NCBI GenBank assembly: GCA_011524535.1
Contig: WTKD01000010.1
Coordinates: 1,233 to 65,232 of the forward strand
Length of the DNA: 64,000 nucleotides
Source: Spirochaetaceae bacterium
Lineage (GTDB): Bacteria > Spirochaetota > Spirochaetia > WTKD01
Direction: 5' to 3'
Shown: one piece after another, positions 44,009 through 64,000 of the stretch
How positions within the stretch are numbered: position 1 is the stretch's first letter
Layout: each line of letters starts with the position of its first letter
The notes under the pieces: generated by a model
What the model was told of the DNA's origin: nothing
The model's database searches: none
Seen by the model: only the letters and a program-made list of their open reading frames with translations
Program-made: the position numbers and the translations under genes

Positions 44009-44512
44009 ATGAAAGACCTTGGTGACGACAACTTCATGCACCTGAGCAAAAGCATCCACATCGACCACACCAAGCCTAAGCCCAATCAACTTACCAAGCT
44101 AGGGGATATTATTTTCCGCTCTCGTGACCAGACAAATACCGCTGCACTACTGAATGAAAATATGGAGAACACAATTGTGGCAGCTCCATTATTCCGTGTA
44201 CGGTCAGATGTAAAAAAGGTTGTGCCAAAATTTTTGCTTTGGTGGATCAATCAACCATCTTCGCAGTCGTATCTCGCATCCAGATCAAAAGGCACCGTGG
44301 TAAAAATGATCAGTAAGCAAAGTTTGGAAGATTTAAAAGTTAACTTACCATCATTTGAGAAGCAAGCAACCATAGTTAAACTTTTCAATCTCTCAATGCG
44401 AGAGCAACAGCTTTTAGAAGAAATTAAAAACCGTAGAGCGATCTATACCCAAGGAATTTTGATGCAGATAGTATCGCAAAACACAAAAAAGGTAACGGGG
44501 GCACAAAGATGA
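44009..44512 (+). CDS. hsdS: Half-size (single-TRD) type I specificity subunit, possibly split from an upstream 33-codon ORF (43911-44012)
   Basis: One target-recognition domain plus the conserved helix LPSFEKQ..IVKLF......LL. The stop overlaps the hsdM ATG (ATGA at 44509). Confidence 0.7.
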   Translation: MKDLGDDNFMHLSKSIHIDHTKPKPNQLTKLGDIIFRSRDQTNTAALLNENMENTIVAAPLFRVRSDVKKVVPKFLLWWINQPSSQSYLASRSKGTVVKMISKQSLEDLKVNLPSFEKQATIVKLFNLSMREQQLLEEIKNRRAIYTQGILMQIVSQNTKKVTGAQR

Positions 44513-46023
44513 CAAATGAAGCAATTAAACAACAAGACGTAAATAACGCTGCATGGGCTGCTTGCGACACCTTTCGTGGCGTGATGGATGCAGCTAGTTA
44601 TAAGGATTATATCCTGGTGATGCTATTCCTGAAATACATCTCGGATGCATGGAAGGATCATTATGAGGAATATCGCAAGCAGTATGGTGGTGACGATGTG
44701 CGTATTCACCGCAATCTAGGGCGTGAGCGTTTTATTCTGCCGAAAAATGCAAGTTTTTACGACCTCTATGAAAAGCGCAATGAAGCCAATATTGGTGAGC
44801 TGATTAACATCGCATTGGACTCAATTGAGACATCCAATAAAAGCAAGCTGGAAGGCGTATTTCGTAATATTGATTTTAACTCAGAAGCTAATCTGGGCAA
44901 AACCAAGGACCGTAACCGCCGCCTGAAAATGCTGCTGGAAGACTTCCACAAGCCTCAACTTGATATGCGCCCAAGCCGTATTTCTGAAGATGTTATCGGT
45001 AATGTTTATATTTACCTGATCGAACGATTTGCCTCTGATGCAGGTAAAAAAGCTGGGGAGTTCTACACCCCGCACAAAGTCTCTGAACTGGTTGCCAAAT
45101 TGTGTAAGCCAAAGGTTGGCGCTCGCATCTGCGACCCGGCATGCGGTTCGGGTGGTCTATTGATTGAGGCTGCCAAGGCTGTCGGTGACCGCAACTACGC
45201 TATCTACGGAATGGAAGTAAACGGCAGCACATGGGCTTTGTGCCGCATGAATATGTTCCTGCATGGGGCCGACTCAGCTCGAATTGAATGGTGCAATACG
45301 CTGACCTCACCAACATTGGTGGAAAATGATCGCCTGATGAAATTCGACAATATCGTCGCAAACCCGCCATTCTCGCTTGATAAGTGGGGCGCTGACGAAG
45401 CTGAGTCCGATGCATATAAGCGCTTCTGGCGCGGTGTACCGCCAAAATCAAAGGGTGATTATGCCTTTATCAGTCACATGATCGAGGCAGCTGTTGAGAA
45501 AAAAGGTCGTGTTGCCGTTGTTGTACCGCATGGGGTTCTGTTCCGTGGTGCTGCTGAAGGGCGCATCCGCGAAAAGCTGATCGAAGATAATTTGCTGGAT
45601 GCCGTCATTGGCCTGCCGGGTAATCTGTTCCCGACCACATCCATCCCGGTCGCTATTTTAATCTTTGACCGCTCCCGCGAGAAAGGCGGCGCCTTTGAGG
45701 ACCGCAAGGACGTTCTCTTCATTGATGCCAGCCAAGATTACCAACCGGGTAAAAACCAAAATGCCCTGATGGATGAACATATGAAGAAAATCCTGCACGC
45801 CTACGAAGCGCGTGAAGAGATTGAAAAATATGCTCATTTGGCAAGCTACGACGAACTGAAAGAAAATGATTTTAACCTGAATATCCCGCGCTATGTCGAC
45901 ACCTTTGAAGAAGAAGCAGAAATTGACATCGAAGCCGTTCAGCAAGAAATCGATACGCTCGAAGGTGAGTTGGCAGAAGTGCGCGGCAAGATGGCTAAGT
46001 TGCTGAAAGAGGTGAAAGCATGA
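44509..46023 (+). CDS. hsdM: Type I restriction-modification N6-adenine DNA methyltransferase subunit
   Basis: HsdM N-terminal domain, SAM motif DPACGSGG and catalytic NPPF (IVANPPFS). Confidence 0.92.
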   Translation: MTNEAIKQQDVNNAAWAACDTFRGVMDAASYKDYILVMLFLKYISDAWKDHYEEYRKQYGGDDVRIHRNLGRERFILPKNASFYDLYEKRNEANIGELINIALDSIETSNKSKLEGVFRNIDFNSEANLGKTKDRNRRLKMLLEDFHKPQLDMRPSRISEDVIGNVYIYLIERFASDAGKKAGEFYTPHKVSELVAKLCKPKVGARICDPACGSGGLLIEAAKAVGDRNYAIYGMEVNGSTWALCRMNMFLHGADSARIEWCNTLTSPTLVENDRLMKFDNIVANPPFSLDKWGADEAESDAYKRFWRGVPPKSKGDYAFISHMIEAAVEKKGRVAVVVPHGVLFRGAAEGRIREKLIEDNLLDAVIGLPGNLFPTTSIPVAILIFDRSREKGGAFEDRKDVLFIDASQDYQPGKNQNALMDEHMKKILHAYEAREEIEKYAHLASYDELKENDFNLNIPRYVDTFEEEAEIDIEAVQQEIDTLEGELAEVRGKMAKLLKEVKA

Positions 46024-46877
46024 ACCAAGTAACCAATCAACATCGCCAAACTTTTGAGGATATTCGTCAGTACAGAGAAGAAGGCCGTGAATTCTGGTCT
46101 GCCAGAGACCTGCTGCCTGTTTTGGAATATAGCAGCTGGGACAAGTTTGAGGCGGTTATTCGCAAAGCGATACAAGCCTGTGATAACTCGGGCATTCCAT
46201 CGGCAGACCATTTTTCCCAAGTCGGGAAAAAGGTCACCATCGGATCAGGAGCCGAGCGTCATATTTCAGACTATGACTGTCATCTCTCAAGATATGCCTG
46301 TTATCTGATTGTTCAAAATGGTGATCCGACAAAGCCAGTTATTGCGAACGGTCAGACATACTTTGCCTTGCAAACGCGCAGGCAGGAATTGGCAGATGAT
46401 TTAGCTTTCCAGCAACTGGATGAAGACAAAAAGCGTGTCTTCCTTCGTAATGAGCTGAAGGAGCATAACAAGCAGCTTGTTGAAGCCGCCAATCAGGCAG
46501 GCATTGAAAGCGGGTTGGATTTTGCGATCTTCCAAAACCATGGCTATCAAGGTCTTTATGGAGGACTGGATGCCAAGGGTATTCACCAGAAAAAGGGCCT
46601 AAAGAAACGTCAACAAATTCTTGATCATATGGGCAGTACCGAATTGGCAGCAAACCTGTTCCGCGCAACGCAGGCAGAAGAAAAGCTGCGCCGTGAAGGT
46701 ATAAAAGGCAAACAGAAGGCTAACCAAGCCCATTACGAGGTAGGCGCAAAAGTACGCCAAACCATTGAGGATTTGGGGGGCACCATGCCAGAGGAACTTC
46801 CAACACCAAAAACAAGCACCAAATCTCTTGAAAAACAACATAAGAAGCAGATCGGTGCGGGCGGTGGGGATGAATAA
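46020..46877 (+). CDS. dinD: DinD-like (DNA-damage-inducible protein D family) protein
   Basis: WSARDL....YS.W..F..VI.KA..AC.NSG......HF and SRYACYLIVQNGDP.KPVIA.GQTYFA.QTRRQE closely match my recollection of E. coli DinD. Confidence 0.75.
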   Translation: MNQVTNQHRQTFEDIRQYREEGREFWSARDLLPVLEYSSWDKFEAVIRKAIQACDNSGIPSADHFSQVGKKVTIGSGAERHISDYDCHLSRYACYLIVQNGDPTKPVIANGQTYFALQTRRQELADDLAFQQLDEDKKRVFLRNELKEHNKQLVEAANQAGIESGLDFAIFQNHGYQGLYGGLDAKGIHQKKGLKKRQQILDHMGSTELAANLFRATQAEEKLRREGIKGKQKANQAHYEVGAKVRQTIEDLGGTMPEELPTPKTSTKSLEKQHKKQIGAGGGDE

Positions 46878-48027
46878 CCAGAATTTACCAGATGACTGGA
46901 AAGTACTTCCTTTGTCTCAACTCGGTTCATTTTCAAAAGGGAAAGGCATTACCAAGTCTGATTTGCAAAATGAAGAGCTTCCATGCATACGATATGGAGA
47001 AATATATACGCTTCATCATCATTCAGTAAAAAGATTTCATTCGTTTATCAATACTGATGTAGCTAGAAGTAGTAAAAAGTTAAAGTTTAACGATTTGCTT
47101 TTTGCTGGATCTGGAGAAACGCTTGAGGAAATTGGAAAAGCTGTTGGCTATCGGCTAAAGCAAGAAGCTTTTGCGGGTGGAGATATAGTGATTTTGAGTT
47201 TAAAAGATCAATATAGAGCCGATTATATCGCCTACTATTTGAACACTTTGGGCAGAAAACAGATAAATAAACTAGGCACTGGACATTCCGTTGTTCATAT
47301 TTATTCGAGGGCTCTGGAAAAAGTATTTGTAATTTTACCTCCTCTTCATATTCAAGAATCTATTGTGGAGTATATTGAACAATGGGACACAGCCATTGAA
47401 AAAACCGAAGCGCTGATTGATGCCAAAGAGCGCCAATTCGGGTGGTTGAGATCTCAACTTATAAAATCTTGTAGCGGCAAAATCTATAAACTTGAAGAAC
47501 TTGAAGCCTTAAAGATCATAAAGCTCGGGCGTGGTGACGTCATTTCTAAAAAAGACTTTGAAAAGTATCCAGGAAGTTATCCAGTTTATTCATCTTCAGT
47601 GAAAAAGAATGGTGTTTTTGGCAAATACGGCAAATTTATGTTTGAACAAAAACTTATTACATGGTCGATAGATGGAGGTGGTGACTTTTTCTATAGACCG
47701 AAACACAAGTTCTCAGTGACGAACGTATGTGGATATATGACTGTAAATGAAGAGAAACTTGATTATGCATTTTTGACAGCACAACTTCAGTTACTACATG
47801 CACGTTTAGTTTTTGATTATCAGTACAAGGCACATCCAAGTGTGATTAGAAAGATTTATAAGGCAAAGCTTCCATCTCTGGAAGAACAAAAACGCATTGC
47901 CCATATCCTCAACACAGCTCAGCAGGAAATCACACTCCTCAAAAAGCTTTGCCGTAAATATCGCACGCAAAAGCGTGGGTTGATGCAAAAGCTACTTAGT
48001 GGACAACGGAAAATTAATCATGGATAA
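46870..48027 (+). CDS. hsdS: Type I specificity subunit, full length with two TRDs
   Basis: The ATG at 46870 lies 8 nt inside the dinD end. MNNQNLPDDWKVLPL is followed by two TRDs separated by the conserved helices LPPL..Q..IV and LPSLEEQKRIA.IL. Confidence 0.88.
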   Translation: MNNQNLPDDWKVLPLSQLGSFSKGKGITKSDLQNEELPCIRYGEIYTLHHHSVKRFHSFINTDVARSSKKLKFNDLLFAGSGETLEEIGKAVGYRLKQEAFAGGDIVILSLKDQYRADYIAYYLNTLGRKQINKLGTGHSVVHIYSRALEKVFVILPPLHIQESIVEYIEQWDTAIEKTEALIDAKERQFGWLRSQLIKSCSGKIYKLEELEALKIIKLGRGDVISKKDFEKYPGSYPVYSSSVKKNGVFGKYGKFMFEQKLITWSIDGGGDFFYRPKHKFSVTNVCGYMTVNEEKLDYAFLTAQLQLLHARLVFDYQYKAHPSVIRKIYKAKLPSLEEQKRIAHILNTAQQEITLLKKLCRKYRTQKRGLMQKLLSGQRKINHG

Positions 48028-49276
48028 CGGAAAACAAAAAGTAAGATTACTTACTTACAGTGAGCTTCTGGAAAAACTCAGTACTGATTCACCTAGTCAC
48101 TTATTGCTTGGAAATGGTTTCAATAATTCTTTGGGTGTAAAAACCAATTATTCAGAAATTTTTGCACAAATGAAAAGAACCTACTCAGGCTATGAACAAG
48201 TTGAAAGCTATCTTAAGGGTGAATATTTCGATATAGAAAAATTGATTGGTTATTTAAAAGGGCAGATTAACCATGATAATGAAGACTTTTTGCCAAGTTA
48301 CATTGAAAGAAAAGTAAAATTGGACTTTATGAATGCAACAAATGAGATTATTCAAGAAAGTATAAAAAACGTTTATCAAGATAATAATGAAAGTATTCAT
48401 TTACTGCTGAAAAATTTTACGAATTACTTCACACTTAATTATGATCCATTTTTATACCTTCTCCTGATGAAATTTAAAAAAGATGATGAAATTAAAAATG
48501 AGGTGTTAACGATTCAAAACACCTTTCTCTTTCAAGAAGAAGACTTGAATCAGGCTCAAAACAATATTTATAAAAAAATTAAACAGGCTAAAACAAATGG
48601 TAAGCTCACTATTAATGTAAACAACAACAATAAAACTGTAGATTTAAAATCGGTAAAAAAAACACAGTTTGTTTTATCAGTAAAAACCTATTTTCAAGAT
48701 GAAGCATGGAAGGGTAAAGATATAGAAAAAGTCTGTAATCAAATATGGAAAGAAGAAGCTAAGCAGTCAAAGCTAAAAGTTGATGACGGGTTTCGAGGAG
48801 AACAGTTAAAATTATATCAAGAAACTGAAGAACAAAACCTCTATTTTTTACATGGTGCTTTTCATATTGTTAAAAACAAAACCGATATTCAAAAAATTAT
48901 AGCCAAACAGAATAAATCTTTCATACAAAAATTAGAAAAGGCAATACACAGTGAAAGTAAAGATATTGTGTGTATTTTAACGAATAACTCCGAAGAGAAA
49001 AAAGTACAGATAGAGGAAAATAAATATTTAGAAAAATGTTTTGATGCTCTGTCTAAAATTGATGGAGCTTTAGTTATCCTAGGAAGTTCTCTGGCAGAAA
49101 ACGACAACCATATTTTTGAACAAATCAACAAAAGTTTTATAAGCAAGGTTTATATCTCTAGCTGCGAAGAAACTCACACAAAAGATTTGAATCGTGCCAA
49201 GGATGTATTCCCTAAAAAAAAGATAATCTTATTTGATTACAAAACTATTTCTTACAGAGAGGAAAACCAAAAATGA
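48020..49276 (+). CDS. SIR2-like protein, DUF4917-type (paralog 1), embedded in the type I R-M operon
   Basis: The ATG at 48020 lies 8 nt inside the hsdS end, and the stop overlaps the hsdR ATG (ATGA at 49273). Motifs LLLGNGF, NYFTLNYDPFLY, LYFLHGAFHI and GSSLAENDNHIFEQI. Confidence 0.7.
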   Translation: MDNGKQKVRLLTYSELLEKLSTDSPSHLLLGNGFNNSLGVKTNYSEIFAQMKRTYSGYEQVESYLKGEYFDIEKLIGYLKGQINHDNEDFLPSYIERKVKLDFMNATNEIIQESIKNVYQDNNESIHLLLKNFTNYFTLNYDPFLYLLLMKFKKDDEIKNEVLTIQNTFLFQEEDLNQAQNNIYKKIKQAKTNGKLTINVNNNNKTVDLKSVKKTQFVLSVKTYFQDEAWKGKDIEKVCNQIWKEEAKQSKLKVDDGFRGEQLKLYQETEEQNLYFLHGAFHIVKNKTDIQKIIAKQNKSFIQKLEKAIHSESKDIVCILTNNSEEKKVQIEENKYLEKCFDALSKIDGALVILGSSLAENDNHIFEQINKSFISKVYISSCEETHTKDLNRAKDVFPKKKIILFDYKTISYREENQK

Positions 49277-52200
49277 CCACCTTCCACCACACCGAAAAAC
49301 ATCTTTCCAAAATTCCCGCGCTGCAACTGCTGGCTAGTTGTGGCTATCAAATCCTGACCCCTCAAAAAGCCTTAGAAGAACGTAAAAACAAATACAGTAA
49401 TGTGCTATTAGAAAATATCCTTCGTCAGCAATTACAGAAATTCAACCGCATCCACTACAAGGGTAAGGACTATCACTTTTCAGAAGCCAATATTCAGAAA
49501 GCAATCCAGAAGATCAAAAAAGTCAAATATAACGGTCTGCAAAAGACCAATGAAATTATCTATGACCTCATTACCCTTGGCACCGCACTGGAGCAGACGG
49601 TCGAAGGCACCAGCAAAAGTTTTAACCTGAATTATATTGACTGGAAAGCACCATTTAATAACGTGTTTCATGTCGTGCCGGAATTCGCTGTAGGGCGTAA
49701 CCGTAGCGTTAAAAAGATTAGACCAGACATTGTTTTGTTCGTCAACGGCATCCCTTTGGCGGTGATTGAATGTAAATCCCCTACGGTGGAGGTTGAGCAA
49801 GCTGTTTCGCAAAACATCCGCAATCAGGGTGATGAATACATCCCAAAACTGTTTACCTATGTGCAATTGGTGATGGGTGTGAATAAGAACGCGGCTCAAT
49901 ATGCGACCACAGGTACACCTGCCAAATTCTGGGGCGTGTGGAAGGAGTTAGAAGACAAAGAAGACAAGATCACTAAAATCATCAATACGCTATTAGGCGA
50001 TGATAAAAAAAATGCACCATTCTCCGGTGAATTTGCACCTGCGCGTGGGCTCTTTGATGCGTTAGAAAATGAAGGTGAGCGCATGCTTACCGAACAGGAT
50101 AAAGCACTTTACAGCCTTTGTCGTCCGGAACGATTGCTGGAGCTGACCTATCGCTTTACGCTATTTGATGCGGGGATTAAAAAAATTGCGCGTTATCAAC
50201 AGTTCTTTGTGGTTCGCTCTACGGTTGATCGTATTAAGCATCGCGACAGTGAGGGTATCAGAACAGGCGGTGTTATCTGGCACACACAAGGCTCTGGTAA
50301 ATCCATCACCATGGCGATGCTGACACGCGCGCTCACTTTGGACATCGAGGTTGCGAATCCGCGCATCATCCTTGTAACGGACCGAGATGATCTGGATAAA
50401 CAGCTGAATAATACGTTTGCCGCCTGCGGTCTTTCTAAAAAACGTGCCACATCTGGTCGTAACCTTGTGAAACACCTGAAAGAAAAAATTGGCATTATCA
50501 CCACGCTCATTCATAAATTTGACAAAGGCTGGGCGTTCGAAAAATACGTCGATGAATCTCAGGACATTTTTGTACTAGTAGATGAAAGCCACAGGACAAA
50601 CTTTGGTTCGCTCGCAGCCAGAATGCGCCAGATGCTGCCAAACTCCTGCTATCTGGGCTTTACGGGTACACCGCTTCTGAAAAAAGAGAAAAATAGCTTC
50701 TTAAAATTTGGCGGAATGATCGAACCGCATTACTCCATCAAACAAGCGGTAAAAGACAAAGCAGTACTGCCATTGCTCTATGAAGGTCGTCACGTAGAAA
50801 TGGAGCAGAATAGAGCAGCTATCGACTTGTGGTTTGATCGCCATACATCAGATCTAAACAAAGATCAGCAGGCTGACCTGAAAAAGAAATATGCCCGCGC
50901 CGAGAGACTGAATAGATCTGATCAGGTTATTTATATGCGGGCCTTTGATGTCAGTGAGCATTATCGCGCCAACTGGCAAGGCACAGGCTTCAAAGCCCAG
51001 CTTGTGGCCCCCAGCAAAGCAGCAGCGATTAAGTATCATGAACACCTGAAGGATATTGGATTCGTTACATCTGAAGTTATTATTTCACCACCGGATATTC
51101 GTGAAGGCTATGAAAAAGTAGATGAAGGACCAACAGATGAAGTTGGCAAGTTCTGGGATAACATGATGAAGCGCTTTGGTTCCGAAGAGGAATATACCAA
51201 ACAGGTCATCAACCAGTTCAAATATGATAAAAAGCCGGAAATTCTGATCGTTGTTGATAAACTACTGACCGGATTTGATGCTCCAAAAAACACAGTTCTC
51301 TACCTTTGTCGCACGCTGCGCGAGCACGCTCTGTTACAGGCCATTGCGCGTGTGAACCGCTTACACGAAGGCAAAGACTTCGGGTATATCGTTGACTATG
51401 CCAGCGTTCTAGGTGAGCTGGATAAAGCCCTAACAATGTATGATGCGTTCGAAGGTTTTGACGAAGAAGACCTTTTGGATACGCTCGCTTCGGTTCACTC
51501 AGAAGTACAAAGGCTTCCTCAGCGCTATTCTGACTTATGGGATATCTTCCGAAAAGTAAAAAATAAGCATAATGAAGAGGCGTTCGAGGTTCTTCTGGCG
51601 GATGATGAGTTGCGTGATGACTTCTACGAAAGACTGGCTGAGTATAGTAAAACCCTCGGGATTGCGCTTTCAACTGACAAATTCATCAGAAAAACGGATG
51701 AAGCCAAGCTACAAACTTATAAGGGTGATCTGAAAAGATTCCAGAACCTGAAAAAATCAGTAAAGCTACGTTATGCAGAGGCCATCGACTACCGTGATTA
51801 CGAGCCTAAGATTAAAAAAATGCTCAATACGCATATTCAGGCCAATGAAGTCATTCAGCTCAATCCGCCTGTCGATATTTTTGACGATCAAAGTTTTGAT
51901 ACGGTCAAAAAAGGGCAAGGTATTCACCTTGGTACATCAACAGCTGCCAGAGCTGACACCATCGCCCATGCGACGAAAAAGGGCATCTTTAAGAAAATGA
52001 ATGAAGACCCTGCGTTTTATAAGAAGTTTTCAAAACTGATCCAGCAAGCCATTGATGACTTTAAAGCACGTCGCATCTCTGATCTCGATTATCTTAACAA
52101 GGTTAGTGATATTCGTGACTCAGTGGTTTTGAAAAAGCATGATAATGTCCCTGAAAGCATCCGCAACAATGATGAAGCATGCGCCTACTATGGGATGATG

Positions 52201-52464
52201 AAAGATTATTTTGCCAATGAAGGCCTGGAAGTGAAAGAACAGGCTATTGCCTATACGGCAGCGAATTCTCAGAAAGCATTTGAACAGGAAAAAATGGTAG
52301 ACTTTTGGGATAATGAAAATGCTATCAACAAGGTTAAAGGAAAAATTGATGATTATCTTTACGACGAATTAAAAGACAAACAAGGTATAGAATTGACGAC
52401 AAAACAAATGGATGAAATCATTGACAAAACGATGCAGATAGCCAAAAGTAGGAGGCATGCATAA
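49273..52464 (+). CDS. hsdR: Type I restriction endonuclease/translocase subunit
   Basis: 1063 aa. N-terminal PD-(D/E)XK region (PDIVLFVNGIPLAVIECK), SF2 helicase motifs TQGSGKS and VDESHR, and the typical C-terminal helical domain. Confidence 0.92.
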   Translation: MTTFHHTEKHLSKIPALQLLASCGYQILTPQKALEERKNKYSNVLLENILRQQLQKFNRIHYKGKDYHFSEANIQKAIQKIKKVKYNGLQKTNEIIYDLITLGTALEQTVEGTSKSFNLNYIDWKAPFNNVFHVVPEFAVGRNRSVKKIRPDIVLFVNGIPLAVIECKSPTVEVEQAVSQNIRNQGDEYIPKLFTYVQLVMGVNKNAAQYATTGTPAKFWGVWKELEDKEDKITKIINTLLGDDKKNAPFSGEFAPARGLFDALENEGERMLTEQDKALYSLCRPERLLELTYRFTLFDAGIKKIARYQQFFVVRSTVDRIKHRDSEGIRTGGVIWHTQGSGKSITMAMLTRALTLDIEVANPRIILVTDRDDLDKQLNNTFAACGLSKKRATSGRNLVKHLKEKIGIITTLIHKFDKGWAFEKYVDESQDIFVLVDESHRTNFGSLAARMRQMLPNSCYLGFTGTPLLKKEKNSFLKFGGMIEPHYSIKQAVKDKAVLPLLYEGRHVEMEQNRAAIDLWFDRHTSDLNKDQQADLKKKYARAERLNRSDQVIYMRAFDVSEHYRANWQGTGFKAQLVAPSKAAAIKYHEHLKDIGFVTSEVIISPPDIREGYEKVDEGPTDEVGKFWDNMMKRFGSEEEYTKQVINQFKYDKKPEILIVVDKLLTGFDAPKNTVLYLCRTLREHALLQAIARVNRLHEGKDFGYIVDYASVLGELDKALTMYDAFEGFDEEDLLDTLASVHSEVQRLPQRYSDLWDIFRKVKNKHNEEAFEVLLADDELRDDFYERLAEYSKTLGIALSTDKFIRKTDEAKLQTYKGDLKRFQNLKKSVKLRYAEAIDYRDYEPKIKKMLNTHIQANEVIQLNPPVDIFDDQSFDTVKKGQGIHLGTSTAARADTIAHATKKGIFKKMNEDPAFYKKFSKLIQQAIDDFKARRISDLDYLNKVSDIRDSVVLKKHDNVPESIRNNDEACAYYGMMKDYFANEGLEVKEQAIAYTAANSQKAFEQEKMVDFWDNENAINKVKGKIDDYLYDELKDKQGIELTTKQMDEIIDKTMQIAKSRRHA

Positions 52465-53225
52465 TGAAAAGTATTGCCTGCACCATCAGCTACGGAAAAA
52501 CAGACATTGACTACGAACTGTTGCTGATGAAACGCACATCGTTAGAAATTGCGGTCCATCCTGACAAAAGTGTCGTGGTCAAAGCGCCGAAGACTTCAAC
52601 GCTTGAAGCTATTGAAGGCAAAATCAAGAAAAGAGCCCGATGGATTAAGCGGCAAATTGCTTATTTTAACCAGTTCTATCCAAGGACCCCGGACAAGAAA
52701 TATTTAGGCGGTGAAAGTCACCTTTATCTAGGTCGACAATACTTTCTTAAAATAGAGGTGTCTGACAAAGATACGTTGATTGTGGGGAATGGGCATTACT
52801 GTACCGAGTCGATACCCGAGAAACCGGAACATATAAGAAATGGATATTTTTTTATCGAGTCGACATCCAGCAAACCGGAACATATAAAGAAGATTTTAGA
52901 TTCTTGGTATAGAAGACAAGCGAAAATGTATCTACCCAAAATTTTTAATGATTGCTGGGATGGTTTCAAAAAAGGAGCCCTGAATAAACCAAATCTGAAA
53001 TTACAAAAAATGGATAAGCGCTGGGGCAGTTTGTCAATTAATGGCAGACTGACACTTAATGTCAATCTTATTAAAACGCCCAAGGAGTGTATTGAATATG
53101 TTGTTATTCACGAACTTTGCCACCTCATCCACCATAATCATAGTACCGAGTTTTATAAACTACTCGACCGCACATTGCCTGATTGGATGAAGCGTAAACA
53201 CAAGCTCGAAATGACTTTAATCTAG
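52464..53225 (+). CDS. YgjP/DUF45-type (M48-like) zinc metallopeptidase
   Basis: WGS......L..N..L...P...I.YV..HEL.HL...NHS..F motif with HELCH zinc site. The start overlaps the hsdR stop (TAATG). Confidence 0.8.
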   Translation: MKSIACTISYGKTDIDYELLLMKRTSLEIAVHPDKSVVVKAPKTSTLEAIEGKIKKRARWIKRQIAYFNQFYPRTPDKKYLGGESHLYLGRQYFLKIEVSDKDTLIVGNGHYCTESIPEKPEHIRNGYFFIESTSSKPEHIKKILDSWYRRQAKMYLPKIFNDCWDGFKKGALNKPNLKLQKMDKRWGSLSINGRLTLNVNLIKTPKECIEYVVIHELCHLIHHNHSTEFYKLLDRTLPDWMKRKHKLEMTLI

Positions 53226-53490: not shown

Positions 53491-53517
53491 TGAGACTCCG
53501 CTAGATAGTTTTTCAAC

Positions 53518-54475: not shown

Positions 54476-54564
54476 CTTTTATTTTCCTTACTTCTGTAAG
54501 CTAACAAAGATATTTTATACAATGGAAATGTGCTTTGCACTAAAAAAATGATAAAGATCAAGAT

Positions 54565-56799: not shown

Positions 56800-57577
56800 A
56801 ATAAATCTTAGGATTCCCCCAGAGGGCGAACAAATAAGAAAACAAAAATAGAGACCACTTACTCGTATCTACTTTATTACATTCAAGGATATTCTTGAAT
56901 GTGATAGTATCGGAATTCTCAACTCGGATTTTGAAAATATAAACAGTAAGCTAAAATCTCTGAAGAGCACCATGACGGGATCGTCAGTCGCACACTTTTT
57001 GAACGGGCACAGACTGTCTTACGCAACAACAAAAAGACCACACGAAAAGAGATGTAAAAGTCCAAATCTCATTTTTATGTGGCTGGTCAAATGCTCCCGC
57101 TGCGAACGACCCATGTCACTCGCTTATACCAAAAAAAGGATTATATCTACCGCTATTATTTCTGCCAAAAGGCATTTAAGAGCGGCTATAAAAGCCGTCT
57201 CCTGGAAAACATACTAGCATGGGATATCGAGGATTTGACTACCGTAAGACTCAAATTTTTTTCGAAACGAGAGCTTGATTGCAACCGTCATTCAAAAGGT
57301 AAAAGCCCTTGATAAAAACAACCTCGACATGGATGAAAATAATGTCATCCAAAACATCAATCAATTTGATCAACTTGGAAATGAGCTCCCCCAAGGGGCA
57401 AGAAGAAATCCCGCAGATGCTGACCAAAGATATCGCGATTTCAACGAAGAACGTCTGCACCCACTTAATATACAGAGCTTTGAAAAGATTGCCAAAGAGC
57501 TGGTCGCAGCCAACAAAAGACGGCAAACCTTACCCAATCTATGGCAGGAAGAGTTGGAGTTGTTTGGATCTATATAA
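56800..57577 (+). pseudogene. Decayed large serine recombinase (recombinase and zinc-ribbon domains only)
   Basis: Segments HHDGIVSRTLFERAQTVL, LVKCSRCERPMS and KKDYIYRYYFCQKAF.SGY.S.LLENI..DIEDL plus a coiled-coil tail lie in three different frames. The shifts fall at the A7 run (about 57131-57137) and the T-run (about 57255). No N-terminal catalytic resolvase domain is visible. Confidence 0.6.
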
Positions 57578-57617
57578 AACATTTGCAAATTGCCATTACG
57601 ATCCTAAGAGGAATACG

Positions 57618-59336
57618 TTAAAAGCGTATTCCTAGCAAGCTTCCTGTTTCATCTTCATCAGAAAGTTTTAGCTTAATATGTTCATCGAAATTGAAATCAT
57701 CATGGAAATCGTCGTATGGTACCCTATCTGAATTAATTGCCATGATATATTGGAAATTGTATTTTTGTGCTTTCTGAGCGGCCTGCTCAATAGCATGAGC
57801 AATTTGACGTTCATCTACACCTTCATAAATGATACTATCATGGACTAGAAAGTCGATATTTCTTCCCAATATTTTTTGCATACACATAACCGTAAGGTCG
57901 TAACAAAAAATCATCATCTTTCCGATTCCAGCACCACGGCCACCAGGAATATCTACCTTAAAGTCATATCCTTTTTCAGAAATATCGATTATAAACTCCC
58001 CAGGAATACCATACAAAGCTTTAGCTGACTCGTTAAACAATCTGATGACCTGTTCCCAGAATTCTCTTTTTTCCTCATAGTCAATGGTAGCATCTTTATC
58101 TAGTTCCAATGTCGATGACTTAATTTCTTTACGTTTTTTTGTTATGTTTCGAATATCTTCTATCTTATTCGAAAGATGTTCACGCTTTTTATATATCTTT
58201 GCATGCTCTTCTTGCAAACGAGAATGTTCCTCAAGTGCACCATGAGTTTTAAGTATTTTCATGCGAGAGGCTCGTTTGTCGGTCAATGTTCGAATAAGAC
58301 CTTCTCTTTGAGATATTCCATTCTCGATTCGGGATATTTCGGCATCTAGAAAGTAGGCACGGTTCTTAATAATTTTCTCATGAAAGACCGACGCTTCCTT
58401 CAAAGTACGCTTTACTGACTCTGGAAAAACCAACCCCGTTTCTTCATAAATAGCTCCTAGTTTACCGTTATCAGGTGGTGTCTCTTCAGATATAGAGCTT
58501 TTATACTGTTGAAGCTTTTGGGACTCAACAACATTCTGATTAGCTAGCTGGTGCAATTCGTTAGTTAATTTGTTGGCTTCAACTTGAATGTCTTTGTATT
58601 TTTCATGAACTTTAAAGTTCGATAAGATTTTTCGGCTCCTTGACAGCTTTTCTTCAAGTTCTACTTTTTTCGCCTCAAGTGCACCTTGTGTTTCATATAC
58701 CCCAGCCTTGATTGAAGCATCCAGGTTTCTAAGCGCTTTGTCTTTCTTATCTAACTTACACCACTCATTGGCATACTTGTGATCTAATCCAAAAAAGAAC
58801 GCATTATTGACATATGCACTGTTATTAGCCTGGCTAGAAAAAAACTTTAATGGCTTACTATATGCATCGTTTCCAGAACGCAAGAAATAAGATAGCAGAC
58901 TGCGAACTGAAAGATCGCTATCTTCTGGCAGATGAAAAAAAGCTTGACCAAGCAACTGTTTCCACTTATCCAACCTAAGAAAGTGTGTATTTGTTTCCTC
59001 ATCAAGATCAGGTTCAATAGACCAATTATTGGTATGACCTTTGATGAGAAACTTTGTTGGATTGTCAATTGCACGTGTTACTTGAACACGATTTTCTAGC
59101 AATGTAATATCGATGGTAAAATCCCAGCCAGATAGCTCGTCGATACACAGACCGCTTCGAGCCGCATCACTGCCTAGGCAAAAATTTATAATTACAATTA
59201 AGGTCGATTTGCCTCGACTATTCGTAGTTTTCTTCTGACCAGAAGTTTCTTGCCTTTCTGCAATAACAACATTCAGCCCCTTATCAAACTCAATGTTTTT
59301 AAAAGAAGACTTATTTGAAGAAATACCGTGAATCAT
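57618..59336 (-). CDS. DUF2326/YydD-like ABC (SMC-like) ATPase with a long coiled-coil insert; ATPase of an ABC-3C-type system
   Basis: N-terminal FKNIEF.KGLNVV.A......NS.GKST (Walker A), a 250-aa coiled-coil middle, and C-terminal FLVHDS (Walker B). The ATG overlaps the upstream stop (ATGA). Confidence 0.7.
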   Translation of the reverse strand: MIHGISSNKSSFKNIEFDKGLNVVIAERQETSGQKKTTNSRGKSTLIVIINFCLGSDAARSGLCIDELSGWDFTIDITLLENRVQVTRAIDNPTKFLIKGHTNNWSIEPDLDEETNTHFLRLDKWKQLLGQAFFHLPEDSDLSVRSLLSYFLRSGNDAYSKPLKFFSSQANNSAYVNNAFFFGLDHKYANEWCKLDKKDKALRNLDASIKAGVYETQGALEAKKVELEEKLSRSRKILSNFKVHEKYKDIQVEANKLTNELHQLANQNVVESQKLQQYKSSISEETPPDNGKLGAIYEETGLVFPESVKRTLKEASVFHEKIIKNRAYFLDAEISRIENGISQREGLIRTLTDKRASRMKILKTHGALEEHSRLQEEHAKIYKKREHLSNKIEDIRNITKKRKEIKSSTLELDKDATIDYEEKREFWEQVIRLFNESAKALYGIPGEFIIDISEKGYDFKVDIPGGRGAGIGKMMIFCYDLTVMCMQKILGRNIDFLVHDSIIYEGVDERQIAHAIEQAAQKAQKYNFQYIMAINSDRVPYDDFHDDFNFDEHIKLKLSDEDETGSLLGIRF

Positions 59337-59560
59337 TTTTCAACCCTCCTAATCAGGAGGTTATCCAATTCTACGACTCCAATGATATAAAGCATATCAA
59401 GCGTTAAAACGAAGCGCTCATAATTTTCAATCGAAGAAACCTCTCTAACAACTTCCCAAAGTGCAGACACAGATTTTGGGGTGCGTAATTCTTGTAGAAT
59501 TACCGCACCTGCTCCGATCAACGCTTGATTTGTTGGAATATGTTTGGTTGGTAAAATCAT
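59333..59560 (-). CDS. Small (75 aa) middle component of the ABC-3C-type system
   Basis: It is coupled by ATGA overlaps to both flanking genes. The size and position match the wHTH-like middle components of ABC-3C systems. Confidence 0.5.
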   Translation of the reverse strand: MILPTKHIPTNQALIGAGAVILQELRTPKSVSALWEVVREVSSIENYERFVLTLDMLYIIGVVELDNLLIRRVEK

Positions 59561-60324
59561 TGTTCAAACACTTCACATATTTCAAACAGGTGAACTACTA
59601 TCATCTCCCCGGCAGCTCTTAGGTTGAAGTCATGGGAGTTACCACTTGCAAAGTAAACCATGGATTTGAATAAATCGTCCGAGAGAATATTTTCATCTAC
59701 AAGACGATTATATTCTTTTCTAAATCCCGCTTTCAATCTATCAGGGAAATTTGCATCTCTTTTCGAGCGCGCTTCAATAAACTGTCCAACTACATGGCTT
59801 CTGCTTAATCCCCTAGCGAGAGAGGTATGTGTGCTCTCTGTGAGATTATTTTTTTTTATTTTTTGTCGTAGAGGAGTAAGTGCAAAATTTTCTTCCTCCG
59901 ATGTTAAATTGAGCTTGGGAATTGCCTTGTTGAGAATTGCCTTGATAGTCAGCTCTAGTTCTTCAAATCCAATGTTCATCCCTGCTACGGTAAGCGATTC
60001 GACTACCCATGATTCATGGTCTTTTTTCATCTTACGTAGAATTTCTGCAGTATATTTATCCTCTGCTCCATCGATGGTGTCATGGTGTGTGCCACACAAC
60101 AATATCCAGTTATCATAGGTATCGAGTTTATCTTGAGGATAAGAACTATCGGCTCGCGGACCATTCTTACTATGTGCAACTATATGAGCTATCTTACCAA
60201 TCTGCTTCTTCTCTCCTGACACATCTTCTACTTCTAGAATGATCTGGCAGCCTGGAAAACTACAGCGTAAAGCAGCATTTCCATATAAAATTTTTACGTC
60301 TGATTGTGGATATTTTCTCCCCAT
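59557..60324 (-). CDS. HNH endonuclease-domain protein with a helical C-terminal domain (ABC-3C effector component)
   Basis: HNH motif AHIVAHSKNGP........DNWILLCGTHHDTID preceded by a Cys pair (CSFPGC). The ATG is at 60324, and the track start at 60330 is TTG. Confidence 0.7.
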   Translation of the reverse strand: MGRKYPQSDVKILYGNAALRCSFPGCQIILEVEDVSGEKKQIGKIAHIVAHSKNGPRADSSYPQDKLDTYDNWILLCGTHHDTIDGAEDKYTAEILRKMKKDHESWVVESLTVAGMNIGFEELELTIKAILNKAIPKLNLTSEEENFALTPLRQKIKKNNLTESTHTSLARGLSRSHVVGQFIEARSKRDANFPDRLKAGFRKEYNRLVDENILSDDLFKSMVYFASGNSHDFNLRAAGEMIVVHLFEICEVFEQ

Positions 60325-60504
60325 ACTCAAGTCCGTACTCCACAGTTATTTTCACCATACACTATCATTTTCAATGATTCAATTTCTTTAGAGGGTTTTG
60401 TTATATTTATGATGCTTTAAAATGCACAGGATCATTAAAACCCGAGGGAAAACTCTTCTGGTTCTTAAAATTCTTGATCCGAAAATTAATCGTTAAGTAT
60501 CTAG

Positions 60505-61791
60505 CTATGTAGTGCTCGTCTTAGTATAAGAAACGGTAGTGTAATCGAATAGCACTATTTTTTTATTCCCAAAAAGCTCTTTGGCTCTTTTTTTGTCTTC
60601 TTCATAGCTTTCCGAACAACTAGAAAGGTAAATCGTTTCTACCGCGCTTTTATTGATTTGTTCAAAAATGTGATTATCATTTTTGTCTAAAGAGCTTCCA
60701 AAAATGGTTAAGTCACCGCTCAGGGTGGGCAGAACGTCAAAACCTTTCTCTAAGTACGTACTGTTTTGTATTTGGTTTTTCTTTTCCTCAGATGTCCCGC
60801 TAAAGACTATAACCATCTTCTGCCATCCGGTATACACTTCTTGAGCTACCCGTTCCTGAAAAGTACTTTTCTCTGTTCGCGTTATTCTCTGGATGGTGTT
60901 ATTCCTTTCAACGATGTGAAATGCTCCATGCAAAAAATATAGATTTTGCTGGTTTGATGCGTCAAATGTGTATAAATATTTTTCCTTTCTGGAAAATCCG
61001 TCATAAGGGATAGTTTCTTTAGAAGATTCTACTGGGGGAAGATCAAACAAATCAGGCGTTTCTTCTGCATCATTGTGTGTGTGAGATGCCTGTGCATTAT
61101 CACCGTTTGAGTTTTTTTCTTCATTTGTAAGATGATCATAAGATTTTCCTATCAGGTAGTCAGCGTAAATAGCGTAATCAGACCATTCCTTTTTTGCCCA
61201 ATCTCTCATTATTTCAAAGTAAACCCTCTTTGAATATTTATATACAGGGTGTATATATTCCCCTTGGTCTGATACGAAGAGGTTTTTATTCATCAATGCT
61301 AAAATTTCTGGTAATTTAATTTTTTCTAGCAGTAAAAGATACAAGAGTGGGTCGTAATTCAGTGTAAAATAATTCGTGAAATGATCTAATAGTTTGAAAA
61401 CACCTTTATTGGAAAAGGTTTCGTCTTTTTTATCAAATCCTTCAGTTATTATCTTCATAGCTGCATATATAAAGTCTTGTTTAATTTCATCCTCAAGACG
61501 TCTTTTTATGAATTCATAACGACTCTTAGAGGCATTCGAGATTACTTCCATCAATTGGCGAGGCAATTTTTCAATGTCAAAATTGTCTTCTTTGAGCCTC
61601 GCTTCTATGCTTAGATATTCTGGATGAGATTTTTTAATTTTTGAAAAAATATTTTCATAGCTTGTGTCGATCTTCAGGGAAATGTTAAACCCGTTTCCAA
61701 GCAGCAAATGATGATCCCGCTTATTGTTTTCTAATCTTTGTAACAATCCGTCATAAGTAATTAGCTTGTTTTCTTCTTGAGCGATATTCAT
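60505..61791 (-). CDS. SIR2-like protein, DUF4917-type (paralog 2)
   Basis: It shares LLLGNGF, FDIEKL, NYFTLNYDPLLYLLL, QNLYFLHGAFHIV, SEEKK.QI....YLEK.FD, GSSL..NDNHIFEQINKS and LFDY.T.SY with the 48020-49276 protein. By eye the overall identity is only about 35-40 percent. Confidence 0.7.
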   Translation of the reverse strand: MNIAQEENKLITYDGLLQRLENNKRDHHLLLGNGFNISLKIDTSYENIFSKIKKSHPEYLSIEARLKEDNFDIEKLPRQLMEVISNASKSRYEFIKRRLEDEIKQDFIYAAMKIITEGFDKKDETFSNKGVFKLLDHFTNYFTLNYDPLLYLLLLEKIKLPEILALMNKNLFVSDQGEYIHPVYKYSKRVYFEIMRDWAKKEWSDYAIYADYLIGKSYDHLTNEEKNSNGDNAQASHTHNDAEETPDLFDLPPVESSKETIPYDGFSRKEKYLYTFDASNQQNLYFLHGAFHIVERNNTIQRITRTEKSTFQERVAQEVYTGWQKMVIVFSGTSEEKKNQIQNSTYLEKGFDVLPTLSGDLTIFGSSLDKNDNHIFEQINKSAVETIYLSSCSESYEEDKKRAKELFGNKKIVLFDYTTVSYTKTSTT

Positions 61792-62391
61792 CGGTGCGTG
61801 TTCTTACTCCTGGAAAAGATTCTTTTCTTGGGAGAGCATAGCCTCGCTTCGCGTAAGGGATGTTTTGCCAGGGGCTGTAAAAGTAGTTCTTTCAGGTTCA
61901 TTGCTCCCCAAAGGAAAAGTTATATTCTCAAACTTCCATCGGTTGAAGTTTTTAATGCATTATATAGGCATACATAAAAATATTTAACTTTAATTACACT
62001 GTATAAGTATCACCATTTTTATGTCAATAGGGTGTACGTATGTATAAATCTATATGCGGTGCGACTGATAATGCTATCATCCACTGAGATTCCAAGAATG
62101 TTCTTTGATGACATAGTTTTTTCTACAATCGTGACTTTATAGCTTGGAGTGGATATGAACTCACAAACTTCTTCTGGCTCGACGGAAAGCTTAGTTTGTC
62201 CTAACTCTTCGAGCAAGACGTTCAGCCTCATTTACGGGGTCAGTCATTGTTTCGTTTCTTAAGACTTTTAGCCAAATTCAAAATAATTTTCTAGTCTTTC
62301 TCGTAGAACGGTAAGGAATTTTTTTATAAAAAACTTTTGGTAGACAGAATTAATATTAACGAAGTCAAAAACAGGGTGCTTTTTTCCGGTA

Positions 62392-63264
62392 TCATTGCCG
62401 ATCGATGCCTTTTTCTAGATATTGTACTGCTTTTTTTGCGGTATCAACGTTTAAGTTGTTACTTACAAACAGTAGTTCTCTTACTCTATTTCCTGAAGAT
62501 CCGTATCGTAACTTCCAACTTAATTTTACGTTGCACGTACGGTATAGATCACGTATAAGTTCATTGTCATCATAAGAAAGCAACCAAGGAAATTCGTTTT
62601 TATTTGAAAGCAGAAACTGGGCTATGTTTTTGTGTCCATCAGAAGTGTAAACATTCATGTAGAGGGCTTTAGCCTTTTCTACGTACGGTGGGTCCAAATA
62701 CACAAATACGTTTTTACATCCAGACAATAGATCCAAAACATCTTTGTTTTCAACTGTTATCCTATCTTTATATCTGTGTATTTTTTCGATTCTGCGTATC
62801 AAAGATCGTTTATTAAATCGTGCATCCATTTTGTATCTTCCAGATTGATTTTTTCCTCCTATGACCCCTCCCTTGATCACACCAGACACATTAGTTCTAT
62901 TCAGATAAAACGTTGAAAATCCCAGGTCGAACAAATTTGCATGTTCTTTGTTGTTTTGTATTTCTTTTTGTCCATACCATGTTTCCATAGTGATTTTGGT
63001 TTCATTTATTTTTTGACACAATCGTTCATTTTCGTGCACGGTGCTGTGCCAAAAAGCATAGATAGAACGATCAAGATCATTGATGGTTATTCTCGATGCA
63101 TGGTCATCGAACAGCAGAGACAGTGCAACGCCAGCCCCGCCAGCAAACGGTTCGACATACTCACATCCAACGAGGTTGTTTTCGTGAAGTAAAGACGCAA
63201 TAAAAGGAACAAGTTTTGTTTTCCCCCCGGGATATCTGAACGGCGAGTAGAATTTATTTTCCAT
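62392..63264 (-). CDS. D12-class (Dam-like) N6-adenine DNA methyltransferase
   Basis: N-terminus FRYPGGK, SAM motif EPFAGGAGV and catalytic DPPY. Confidence 0.85.
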   Translation of the reverse strand: MENKFYSPFRYPGGKTKLVPFIASLLHENNLVGCEYVEPFAGGAGVALSLLFDDHASRITINDLDRSIYAFWHSTVHENERLCQKINETKITMETWYGQKEIQNNKEHANLFDLGFSTFYLNRTNVSGVIKGGVIGGKNQSGRYKMDARFNKRSLIRRIEKIHRYKDRITVENKDVLDLLSGCKNVFVYLDPPYVEKAKALYMNVYTSDGHKNIAQFLLSNKNEFPWLLSYDDNELIRDLYRTCNVKLSWKLRYGSSGNRVRELLFVSNNLNVDTAKKAVQYLEKGIDRQ

Positions 63265-63988
63265 GACTAAGTTCTAGCATCTTTCCGATTATAAGAGATA
63301 GAGCAACGGTTTGATCTAAGTTATTGGTTGCAGTGTATCCGTGAGCTCCAATATGAAGCAATGAAAGTATTCTTTTTTTATCAACTTTTTGAGCAAAAAG
63401 AGTCGATTTTTCATCTTGAGTAAATGTTATGCGCGGATCTTTCTCATATTTATCTAAAAATTTAGATATTTTTAGAGGGCCTTCTTCTGTAGAAACGTCC
63501 TCTGCGGCAACTTCAACTAGTAGCCTTAGTCCCATACGGATGATCATGGGAAAATGGCCAGAATACTTAGTCCGTTCTTTGTATATACTTCGCAAATCTT
63601 TGTATAAATTATTAACAGATCCAGCTCTTAGAGGGCGTATAGTACCGAATAATTCGGGCTTTTTTGCATTTACTCTTTTCGTCATTTGGGCAGAACCCTC
63701 TCGAGTTAATTGAAAAGGAGCCTCTGTTCTTTCCACGGGTGTACCAACATTTCCTTGAGTCGGTAGTAAAGACAATGGATTGTCTTTACTACGTAATTTC
63801 TGTAATATCTCTTTACACAACGAATCCTCGTATATTTTTTCCATGAGTACTTTACGATTTTCTCGAGTATCCAGTTTTTTGTTTTTTACTAAGGACACTA
63901 TGGTGCCTAATATATGGTAAGCATCTTCATCGTTTTTGTGGTTCGATTTTAGAACACCATCATCGGCATAAAAGCCCAATGTTTGCAA
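63254..63988 (-). CDS. Hypothetical protein translationally coupled to the D12 methyltransferase (possibly 5'-partial)
   Basis: An ORF of at least 244 aa that overlaps the methyltransferase start by 11 nt. The track start is TTG and the frame stays open to the window edge. I recognise no motif. Confidence 0.5.
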   Translation of the reverse strand: MQTLGFYADDGVLKSNHKNDEDAYHILGTIVSLVKNKKLDTRENRKVLMEKIYEDSLCKEILQKLRSKDNPLSLLPTQGNVGTPVERTEAPFQLTREGSAQMTKRVNAKKPELFGTIRPLRAGSVNNLYKDLRSIYKERTKYSGHFPMIIRMGLRLLVEVAAEDVSTEEGPLKISKFLDKYEKDPRITFTQDEKSTLFAQKVDKKRILSLLHIGAHGYTATNNLDQTVALSLIIGKMLELSHGK

Positions 63989-64000
63989 ATTTTTCCGGGT

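Follow-up and report, generated by a model that had tools for sequence, protein, structure and literature searches.

SIR2 domains of the DSR, ThsA and SIR2-HerA systems defend bacteria by depletion of nicotinamide adenine dinucleotide (NAD+) (10.1101/2021.12.14.472415; PMC11472057), and AbiH, an experimentally active single-gene abortive infection (Abi) system of lactococci, has been described as sirtuin-like and possibly NAD-depleting (PMC13064643). In addition, the PADLOC 'guilt-by-embedding' screen yielded PDC-S21, PDC-S13 and PDC-M68 as predicted candidates (10.1101/2024.01.29.577857). In this study, a stretch of 64,000 nucleotides from a Spirochaetaceae bacterium (assembly GCA_011524535.1, contig WTKD01000010.1, positions 1,233 to 65,232), hereafter the window, was found to carry two members of the DUF4917/PDC-S21 family in one island: a canonical copy (paralog 1) and a strongly diverged one (paralog 2). 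We consider it about an even chance (probability of roughly 0.5) that paralog 2 is a stand-alone, AbiH-like, NAD-consuming abortive-infection effector with a trigger unlike that of paralog 1. The two genes and the parts of paralog 2 are listed below by their positions in the window.

60505..61791, minus strand: paralog 2 (DUF4917/PDC-S21), an intact ATG-started open reading frame (ORF) of 428 aa with a SIR2-like fold
61327..61791, minus strand: first Rossmann half of paralog 2 (residues 1-155), comprising the G32-N33-G34 glycine loop, a helical module, and a strand with N145-x-D147
60982..61326, minus strand: middle module of paralog 2 (residues 156-270), an orphan whose tail (215-265) is acidic, in place of the conserved folded insert of the family
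60505..60981, minus strand: second Rossmann half of paralog 2 (residues 271-428), containing H288-G289 and G365-S-S-L...D372-x-H374
61998..62027, minus strand: promoter-like site (TTGACA, 18 nt, TACAGT) lying 5' of paralog 2 within the gap of 600 bp, from a consensus scan with 10/12 matches; weak evidence
47999..49276, plus strand: paralog 1 (DUF4917/PDC-S21), canonical member, between hsdS and hsdR

Paralog 2 scored 69.1 bits against Pfam DUF4917 (PF16263, gathering threshold 28) and matched the PADLOC PDC-S21 hidden Markov models (HMMs) with an E value of 1.2e-42; the corresponding values for paralog 1 were 53.2 bits (threshold 28) and 1.9e-44. All 69 aligned homologues match Pfam DUF4917 as well. 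The ORF, Pfam and PADLOC calls agree on an intact 428-aa DUF4917 protein, as a preliminary description of this DNA had read from the letters, and the spacings given there were right (a D12 methyltransferase gene at 62392-63264 lies 600 bp away, the first ABC-3C gene 174 bp). In the database, paralog 1 (P0004) begins at an internal ATG and has 418 aa, rather than the 425 aa of the GTG-started ORF. A 70-aa ORF with no family match (62019-62231, minus strand) lies in the gap between the methyltransferase gene and paralog 2; the equivalent gap in locus L080, described below, is only ~30 bp and too short for such an ORF.

The AlphaFold model of paralog 2 comprised two Rossmann halves with predicted local distance difference test (pLDDT) values of 85-97, residues 271-428 lying at 80-97. 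In a Foldseek search of the PDB, the top 20 matches were all the SIR2 subunit of E. coli SIR2-HerA (probability 1.00, E values to 1.3e-5, template modelling (TM) scores of 0.41-0.55), and the identity to defence SIR2 structures was 10-14%. The structural matches of paralog 1 (model pLDDT 86) also included KomC, Sir2Tm, DSR2, ThsA, SPARSA and SIRT3, every match at E <= 0.4 being a SIR2-superfamily structure. An alignment of 69 homologues (A1) contained 30 invariant columns, including G32-N33-G34, N145 and D147 ('TLNYD'), H288-G289 ('LHG'), G365, D372 and H374; with paralog 2 set aside, 32 columns were invariant in the other 68, and paralog 2 retains 30 of these 32. When the insert described below was excised, both cores matched Pfam DUF4917 as one continuous stretch, and they reached AbiH (PF14253) at E 1e-3 (19.2 and 19.7 bits) over profile positions 3-249 of 260 and SIR2_2 at E 8e-4 and 0.03 (14.9 bits for paralog 2 and 20.0 bits for paralog 1). 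Secondary profile matches led to AbiH in 12 of the 69 members (at E < 0.01) and to SIR2_2 in three, and no other family recurred in more than two. At the level of sequence profiles, the AbiH matches indicate remote homology, not family membership. The 'SIR2-like' label of the preliminary description is supported by the fold and the motif pattern, while formal membership in Pfam SIR2_2 or AbiH does not hold. A profile search of PDB sequences recovered no SIR2 protein and no sequence-level relative with a solved structure, only chance-level PIWI MID matches; family profile positions 258-329, in the second Rossmann half, weakly matched the Piwi-like protein 1 MID domain (E 0.0035), probably by chance or through a generic Rossmann-like resemblance.

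SIR2-HerA (Nezha), DSR2, ThsA, SPARSA and KomC are the best structural matches, sharing the Rossmann core and the pattern of glycine loop, N-x-D and H-G, but at the low identity and TM scores given above, and the position and content of the insertion are specific to the insert-bearing DUF4917 clade. The Pfam and PADLOC scans detected no HerA-like gene beside either paralog, no SLOG or TIR match (the C-terminal domain of ThsA and the neighbour ThsB) in paralog 2 or the scanned island genes, and neither an Argonaute nor a large C-terminal sensor partner in or beside paralog 2. DSR1 and DSR2 combine an N-terminal SIR2 domain with a large C-terminal sensor in ~1000 aa, whereas the SIR2 core of paralog 2 spans the whole length of its 428 aa. 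AbiH resembles paralog 2 as a single-gene, sirtuin-like system, with near-full-length matches from the insert-less cores.

The conserved N-x-D and H-G motifs are equally compatible with deacylation, and the helices that separate the glycine loop from N-x-D sit at what we take to be the canonical position of the sirtuin small domain. Paralog 2 could in that case be an NAD-dependent deacylase or ADP-ribosyltransferase acting on a specific host or phage protein, and maybe no defence gene. The model for such a function is SliP (Cjj81176_0779), a DUF4917 protein with sirtuin-type deacetylase activity, described as having a Pfam DUF4917 match, a predicted sirtuin-like fold and ThsA as its best template; by the same description, however, it is secreted and acts on the host as a histone deacetylase, and its gene lies downstream of dnaK and grpE (PMC10421069). 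We regard this function as quite unlikely for paralog 2, whose best structural matches are defence NADases rather than deacetylases, whose family occurs overwhelmingly in restriction and defence contexts, and whose marine or macroalgal metagenome source gives no sign of a host-directed secretion context.

The difference between the two copies lies mainly in the middle of the protein. A clade of ~410-430-aa members carries an insertion of ~100-115 residues relative to the generic DUF4917 and PDC-S21 profiles, located between the N-x-D and H-G strands. This insert is conserved in canonical members (mean consensus frequency 0.51), and that of paralog 1 matches the consensus at 57% and is modelled as two helices, a beta-hairpin and two more helices at pLDDT 90-95. 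Residues 156-270 of paralog 2 form a segment of the same length with a consensus match of only 16%, the second half of which is acidic (12 D/E vs 3 K/R in residues 215-265, where the preliminary description had placed an acidic stretch), and residues 158-257 were modelled at pLDDT < 50. An HMMER search with residues 156-270 against 1.84 billion representative proteins returned paralog 2 itself and no other homologue. Since residues 1-155 match the family consensus at 41% and residues 271-428 share 43-45% identity with both the consensus and paralog 1, the divergence is concentrated in one module. A folded insert in one copy and an unrelated segment in the other would imply that the two respond to different triggers and are not redundant.

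End to end, paralogs 1 and 2 share 36% identity and 56% positives by BLASTP (E 3e-76), and the alignment includes all five motif blocks quoted in the preliminary description (LLLGNGF, NYFTLNYDP, LYFLHGAFHIV, GSSL..NDNHIFEQINKS and LFDY.T.SY). Relatives of paralog 1 in other genomes are 50-59% identical to it, and canonical members share 50-71% with one another, whereas paralog 2 is 33-43% identical to all other family members; a database of 5.8 billion clusters contained no full-length match to it above ~40% identity. Its terminal neighbour-joining (NJ) branch is 2.4 times the family median, and the two paralogs were exclusive sisters in none of 100 NJ bootstraps. The uniform distance from all members, the long branch and the missing sisterhood rule out a recent duplication, so that the earlier claim of one family without recent duplication holds; the GC content (29% in paralog 1 and 35% in paralog 2) points the same way. 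Paralog 1 (GC 29%, 26% at third codon positions (GC3)) is compositionally foreign within its operon, the surrounding locus having 38-48% GC and hsdM and hsdR a GC3 of 46-50%, and the GC of paralog 2 is like that of the adjoining genes. From the differing GC and the differing flanking cassettes, independent acquisition of the two copies is plausible, and an old duplication followed by accelerated change is a plausible alternative. NJ grouped paralog 2 with loci L066-L068 at 83% bootstrap, which was set aside as probable long-branch attraction because its raw identity is nearest to paralog 1 and its clade and its middle module shares nothing with L066-L068.

Such divergence could also mark a decaying or neofunctionalising relic that left a type I slot, lost its regulatory module and drifts without a current function. 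Besides the long branch, no full-length typical member scores lower than paralog 2 against the family HMM (402 bits, vs 588 for paralog 1), and its middle module is an orphan of low model confidence. We nevertheless find a relic distinctly improbable: the 428-codon ORF is intact, 30 of the 32 family-invariant residues are kept, contigs from three or more different samples carry the identical protein, and the divergence is confined mainly to one module instead of being even.

The distribution of the family was surveyed in 65 non-redundant loci from GTDB representative genomes of many phyla, with flanking ORFs clustered without prior labels (loci are referred to by L-numbers where needed). The largest neighbour clusters were HsdS in 36 loci (directly upstream in 30), HsdR in 33 (downstream) and HsdM in 30 (upstream), all on the same strand as DUF4917. 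Profile searches placed type I hsd genes within 5 kb in 41 of the 65 loci, with 111 of 111 co-oriented; where both flanks reached 5 kb or more (29 loci), hsd genes were present in 17 and some R-M methyltransferase in 20. That the 63% figure represents an enrichment is argued from the consistency of strand and order and from general knowledge. Other restriction systems host the family as well: DUF4917 lies between type III mod and res in L051 and upstream of Mod-Res in L006, directly follows Eco57I/TaqI_C (PglX-like) methyltransferases in L016 and L019, and stands directly upstream of an N6_N4 methyltransferase, a D12 methyltransferase and a MutH-like endonuclease in L066/L067. In L066 (9965-13609) and L067 the protein is a divergent 447-aa DUF4917, and the endonuclease of the type II R-M system there is convergent and MutH/MvaI-like. 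The recurrent association with modification modules that had been surmised for the family is real, and it had already been exploited by the PADLOC embedding screen. Among the 67 classified family genes (65 loci and the two window copies), 18 had no same-strand hsd or Mod gene within 5 kb, namely paralog 2 and 17 outside the window; the surroundings of these 17 solitary loci held no conserved partner, only polysaccharide-synthesis genes and scattered defence genes.

Paralog 1 represents the common arrangement. The type I R-M locus that surrounds it, called from Pfam, PADLOC and NCBIfam scans, is composed as follows.

44009..53225, plus strand: type I R-M locus
44009-44512, plus strand: hsdS fragment, a short hsdS-like ORF directly 5' of hsdM
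44509-46023, plus strand: hsdM
46020-46877, plus strand: DinD/Bro-N gene (PDC-S13) between hsdM and hsdS; NCBIfam 'DNA damage-inducible protein D' E 1e-133, PADLOC PDC-S13 E 4e-119
46765-48027, plus strand: hsdS
49273-52464, plus strand: hsdR, downstream of paralog 1
52464-53225, plus strand: YgjP-like gene after hsdR

Paralog 1, type I-embedded as the preliminary description had it, sits between hsdS and hsdR, and the locus holds two separate embedded cassettes, DinD/Bro-N (PDC-S13) and paralog 1 itself. DinD/Bro-N homologues recur beside DUF4917 in seven other loci. Short hsdS-like ORFs (167-218 aa, a single Methylase_S domain) stand 5' of hsdM in the window, in L081 (2345-2980) and in L162 (2492-3148); the latter two are unrelated contigs with the same overall locus plan as the window, and the short ORF could be a half-hsdS or spare specificity module. 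PDC-S21 was defined by position within a BREX, DISARM or type I R-M operon. Both paralogs match its profiles and paralog 1 occupies the defining position; paralog 2 differs in being unembedded, between a PD-lambda-5-like pair and an ABC-3C operon, the clade of both differs from PDC-S21 in the insertion, and the insertion of paralog 2 is unrelated to that of its clade.

The position of the embedded members makes a PrrC-style guard the main rival, and an attractive one for these members. Such a protein would act in trans, silent with an intact restriction complex and firing when a phage anti-restriction factor disables the complex; paralog 2 would then guard a system other than that of paralog 1, for instance the adjacent PD-lambda-5-like pair, or the type I enzyme at a distance of 8 kb. 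PrrC itself, an anticodon nuclease, is a documented precedent of an embedded guard (PMC12707154), and in most loci DUF4917 shares the prrC slot between hsdS and hsdR on the same strand, with the type III, type II and Eco57I/PglX-like loci above as further cases. In addition, none of the six most diverged middle modules comes from a type I locus, and type I contexts show a higher ratio of middle to core conservation (Mann-Whitney p 0.006, uncorrected for phylogeny). The likeness to PrrC/EcoprrI is that canonical members, including paralog 1, are nested in a type I hsd operon with the same slot logic, that of an embedded toxic effector (PMC12707154), and guarding would be argued by analogy; the differences are a SIR2-like protein instead of an ABC-ATPase with a HEPN-type nuclease and, for paralog 2, a position outside any hsd operon. 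Four mechanistically different restriction types together with the 17 solitary loci argue against a specific lock on one enzyme, many solitary members retain the canonical middle module, and co-transfer and co-regulation alone can explain embedding (10.1101/2024.01.29.577857). On this balance, a guard function of paralog 2 appears unlikely. A broader version, in which the insert-bearing clade is a general guardian of S-adenosylmethionine (SAM)-dependent restriction (type I, type III and Eco57I/PglX-like), seems rather improbable: the module would sense an anti-restriction insult such as DNA mimics or SAM depletion and trigger NAD+ collapse, and paralog 2 would be re-targeted to the A/D12 methyltransferase pair described next, to ABC-3C or to another phage cue. 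If true, one island would hold two SIR2 alarms with distinct triggers.

Upstream of paralog 2 lies a two-gene module that the preliminary description had linked to it through its methyltransferase.

62392..63264, minus strand: D12-class N6-adenine DNA methyltransferase, B of the PD-lambda-5-like pair; Pfam MethyltransfD12 E 2e-27, PADLOC PD-Lambda-5_B E 2.3e-108 over the full length
63254..64000, minus strand: protein A, C-terminal 244 of 428 residues, with a ParB/Srx-like N-terminus; overlaps the methyltransferase start by 11 nt and runs past the window

The native contig extends beyond the window, and the full A gene was located on it at L001:3615-4901 (pair with the methyltransferase, L001:3615-5763). 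Protein A, which has more than 1,276 homologues, carries the motifs WTENPRD and YDGNRR and weakly matches seven PD-Lambda-5_A models (best E 1.1e-8, residues 5-120 only); one UniRef homologue is named 'ParB/Sulfiredoxin domain-containing protein'. PD-lambda-5, attributed to Vassallo and colleagues (2022), is reportedly a two-gene system resembling R-M combined with Abi. The window pair resembles it in the full-length B match, the match of the A N-terminus to seven models and the gene overlap, but the A match is weak and DUF4917 is no component of PD-lambda-5. Of 82 A-centred loci, 70 extend far enough downstream to show what follows A, and in 67 of these a D12 methyltransferase gene directly adjoins or overlaps its 3' end (overlaps of 3-58 nt), so A and the methyltransferase are a very widespread, translationally coupled two-gene module. 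No match to protein A was found by tblastn against plasmids, and an AAA ATPase beside a related methyltransferase in phage phiNP proved unrelated to A. An ORF of 146 aa upstream of A (L001:3135-3575) has no family match, and a perfect hairpin with a 13-bp stem (GTAGTAAAGACAATGGATTGTCTTTACTAC) at 63763-63792 lies inside the A coding region, where the terminator scan called it on the plus (antisense) strand.

Recurrence of the pair with DUF4917 is one point in favour of a guard. DUF4917 lies downstream of A in two of the five closest A relatives, both inside a type I locus: L080, which holds the best A homologue in the database, reads hsdS, A, D12 methyltransferase, DUF4917, hsdR, and L081 reads hsdS, FRG, A, DUF4917, hsdR. 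The three further close relatives have A with or without the methyltransferase and no DUF4917; in L162 and L163 A occupies the hsdS-hsdR slot, and in L164 the pair stands alone with hsdR-like genes ~2 kb downstream. Across the 82 A-centred loci, hsd genes were present in 12. A partnership of paralog 2 with the D12 methyltransferase was dropped, reopened on L080 and L081, and settled in the negative, on a set of 80 unbiased A loci, by the 67/70 pairing of the methyltransferase with its own partner A and by the absence of DUF4917 within 3 kb downstream of the pair in all 34 unbiased loci. None of the 65 DUF4917-centred loci contained an A homologue. We conclude that A/methyltransferase and DUF4917 are independent cassettes with a common preferred landing slot, and their recurrence fits shared cassette tenancy better than a methylation-linked mechanism; inheritance of the trio together by a narrow lineage is possible. 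The window block of A, methyltransferase, DUF4917 and ABC-3C looks like slot cargo without the surrounding hsd genes.

On its other side, paralog 2 is followed by an ABC-3C system identified with Pfam and PADLOC (PDC-M68A/B, E 3e-76 and 5e-185).

57618..60330, minus strand: ABC-3C system (PADLOC PDC-M68), three genes
59557-60330, minus strand: HNH-CTD10 effector
59333-59560, minus strand: MC6
57618-59336, minus strand: DUF2326 ABC ATPase

With the same strand, a gap of 174 bp and no predicted terminator between, paralog 2 could be an accessory or second effector, co-transcribed with and controlled by the HNH-CTD10/MC6/DUF2326 module. One distant locus, L007, repeats the gene order inside a type I locus (DUF4917, a 184-bp gap, CTD10 effector, MC6, DUF2326 ATPase), and ABC-3C effectors are varied and include sirtuins, according to Krishnan et al. 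2020 as cited in 10.1101/2024.01.29.577857. This role is nonetheless highly improbable. A Pfam scan found no CTD adaptor domain in paralog 2, such as an ABC-3C effector would carry; the four closest operons, seen in five contexts, are all self-contained three-gene units with no DUF4917; and L007 is the only one of the 65 other DUF4917 loci with an ABC-3C neighbour. The ATPase has more than 20 relatives at 60-77% identity and paralog 2 none above ~43%. As an obligate ABC-3C component paralog 2 was rejected, since the closest operons lack DUF4917 and no orthologues travel with the 60-77% ATPases; ABC-3C is a neighbour and not a demonstrated partner, and the link is not obligate. L007 (6550-17141), from a Ca. 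Oxydemutatoraceae metagenome-assembled genome, holds three embedded units between hsdM and hsdR of one type I locus: a gene related to HepT and nucleotidyltransferase substrate-binding proteins, DUF4917, and a complete ABC-3C (CTD10 effector, MC6, DUF2326). In L075/L076 (5025-12768), one strand carries two different ABC-3C systems separated by ~2 kb (CTD10/MC6/DUF2326, then CTD12/MC8/DUF2326).

For paralog 2 as a stand-alone NAD-consuming effector, the course of events would be that a phage-derived or infection-derived cue activates the protein, that it consumes NAD+ via the SIR2-type pocket (G32-N-G34, N145-x-D147, H288-G289, G365-S-S), and that this consumption arrests or kills the infected cell. 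The ~110-residue module between N-x-D and H-G is the best candidate for a sensor or gate. What the data show are the family, the fold, the conserved pocket residues, the orphan insert of paralog 2 and the neighbourhood statistics, from which the NADase chemistry, an abortive-infection outcome, sensing by the insert and autonomy are inferred. Paralog 2 is probably a single-gene unit, and the adjacency of A/D12 methyltransferase, ABC-3C and DUF4917 would reflect cassettes that habitually occupy hsdS-hsdR slots or defence islands, with no dedicated partnership. Autonomy of DUF4917 is argued from the 18 of 67 genes with neither hsd nor Mod nor a conserved partner, from the A-methyltransferase pair occurring without it in 34 of 34 loci, and from the closest ABC-3C operons that lack it.

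Several observations weigh against this interpretation. The one DUF4917 protein characterised so far, SliP of C. jejuni, is reported to be secreted and to act as an NAD-dependent protein deacetylase, not as an NADase in defence (PMC10421069), and a literature search revealed no biochemical or phage-challenge evidence for any insert-bearing clade member. Searches of the supplement and full-text literature for PDC-S21 gave nothing specific; an S. thermophilus defence paper assayed SIR2-HerA and not the DUF4917 family. The predicted pocket residues are equated with the catalytic residues of sirtuins and ThsA by motif analogy and fold. Both insert-less cores fall below the Pfam thresholds for SIR2_2 (cut-off 24.5) and AbiH (~19 bits vs gathering 30.9). 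The low pLDDT of the middle module may stem from a lack of aligned homologues or from decay of the regulatory part. Scans for promoters and terminators gave no more sites than shuffled sequence did, and the promoter call is weak, and a search for RNA evidence found the sequence in DNA metagenome runs only. Finally, the recurrence of A-methyltransferase-DUF4917 in L080 and L081 and of DUF4917-ABC-3C in L007 leaves room for functional coupling.

The island as a whole starts just past a photolyase gene (41861-43285) and reaches, outside the window, an amine-oxidase/SOUL pair; the native contig is from a marine or macroalgal metagenome assembly in the European Nucleotide Archive (ENA). Between the type I locus and ABC-3C it contains one more recognisable gene.

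54565-56439, plus strand: stand-alone OLD-family ATPase-TOPRIM gene (AAA_15/AAA_21 and OLD-like TOPRIM; best PADLOC match Old, E 1e-28), no obvious partner

The 1.3 kb after the YgjP-like gene (53226-54564) has only a 183-aa ORF (54000-54551), which matches neither Pfam nor PADLOC. The stretch that separates the OLD-family gene from the ABC-3C ATPase (56440-57640) contains short overlapping ORFs (77-108 aa) in several frames and no long ORF, and may be a decayed gene.

Databases already record the family, its likeness to SIR2 and its position within R-M loci, and the finding is not categorically new. What is new is a second copy that is equally distant from every known member, has an orphan middle module and shares its island with a canonical copy; the embedding of the clade in type I, III, II and IIG-like systems; and the sharing of the slot with the ParB-like/D12 methyltransferase pair and ABC-3C. 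The clade is widespread over many phyla and tightly nested in restriction loci. The hsdS-hsdR gap is a landing slot common to DUF4917, the ParB-like/D12 methyltransferase pair, ABC-3C and DinD/RhuM-like genes, which bears on defence prediction from embedding. A genome holding two copies that share their catalytic core and differ in the middle module amounts to a natural experiment on trigger sensing, and the island is a good experimental entry point to a candidate defence family, with no surprise in kind. If the clade does act as an NAD-depleting effector, it would add to NAD-based immunity a single-gene SIR2 branch tied to the decades-old AbiH.

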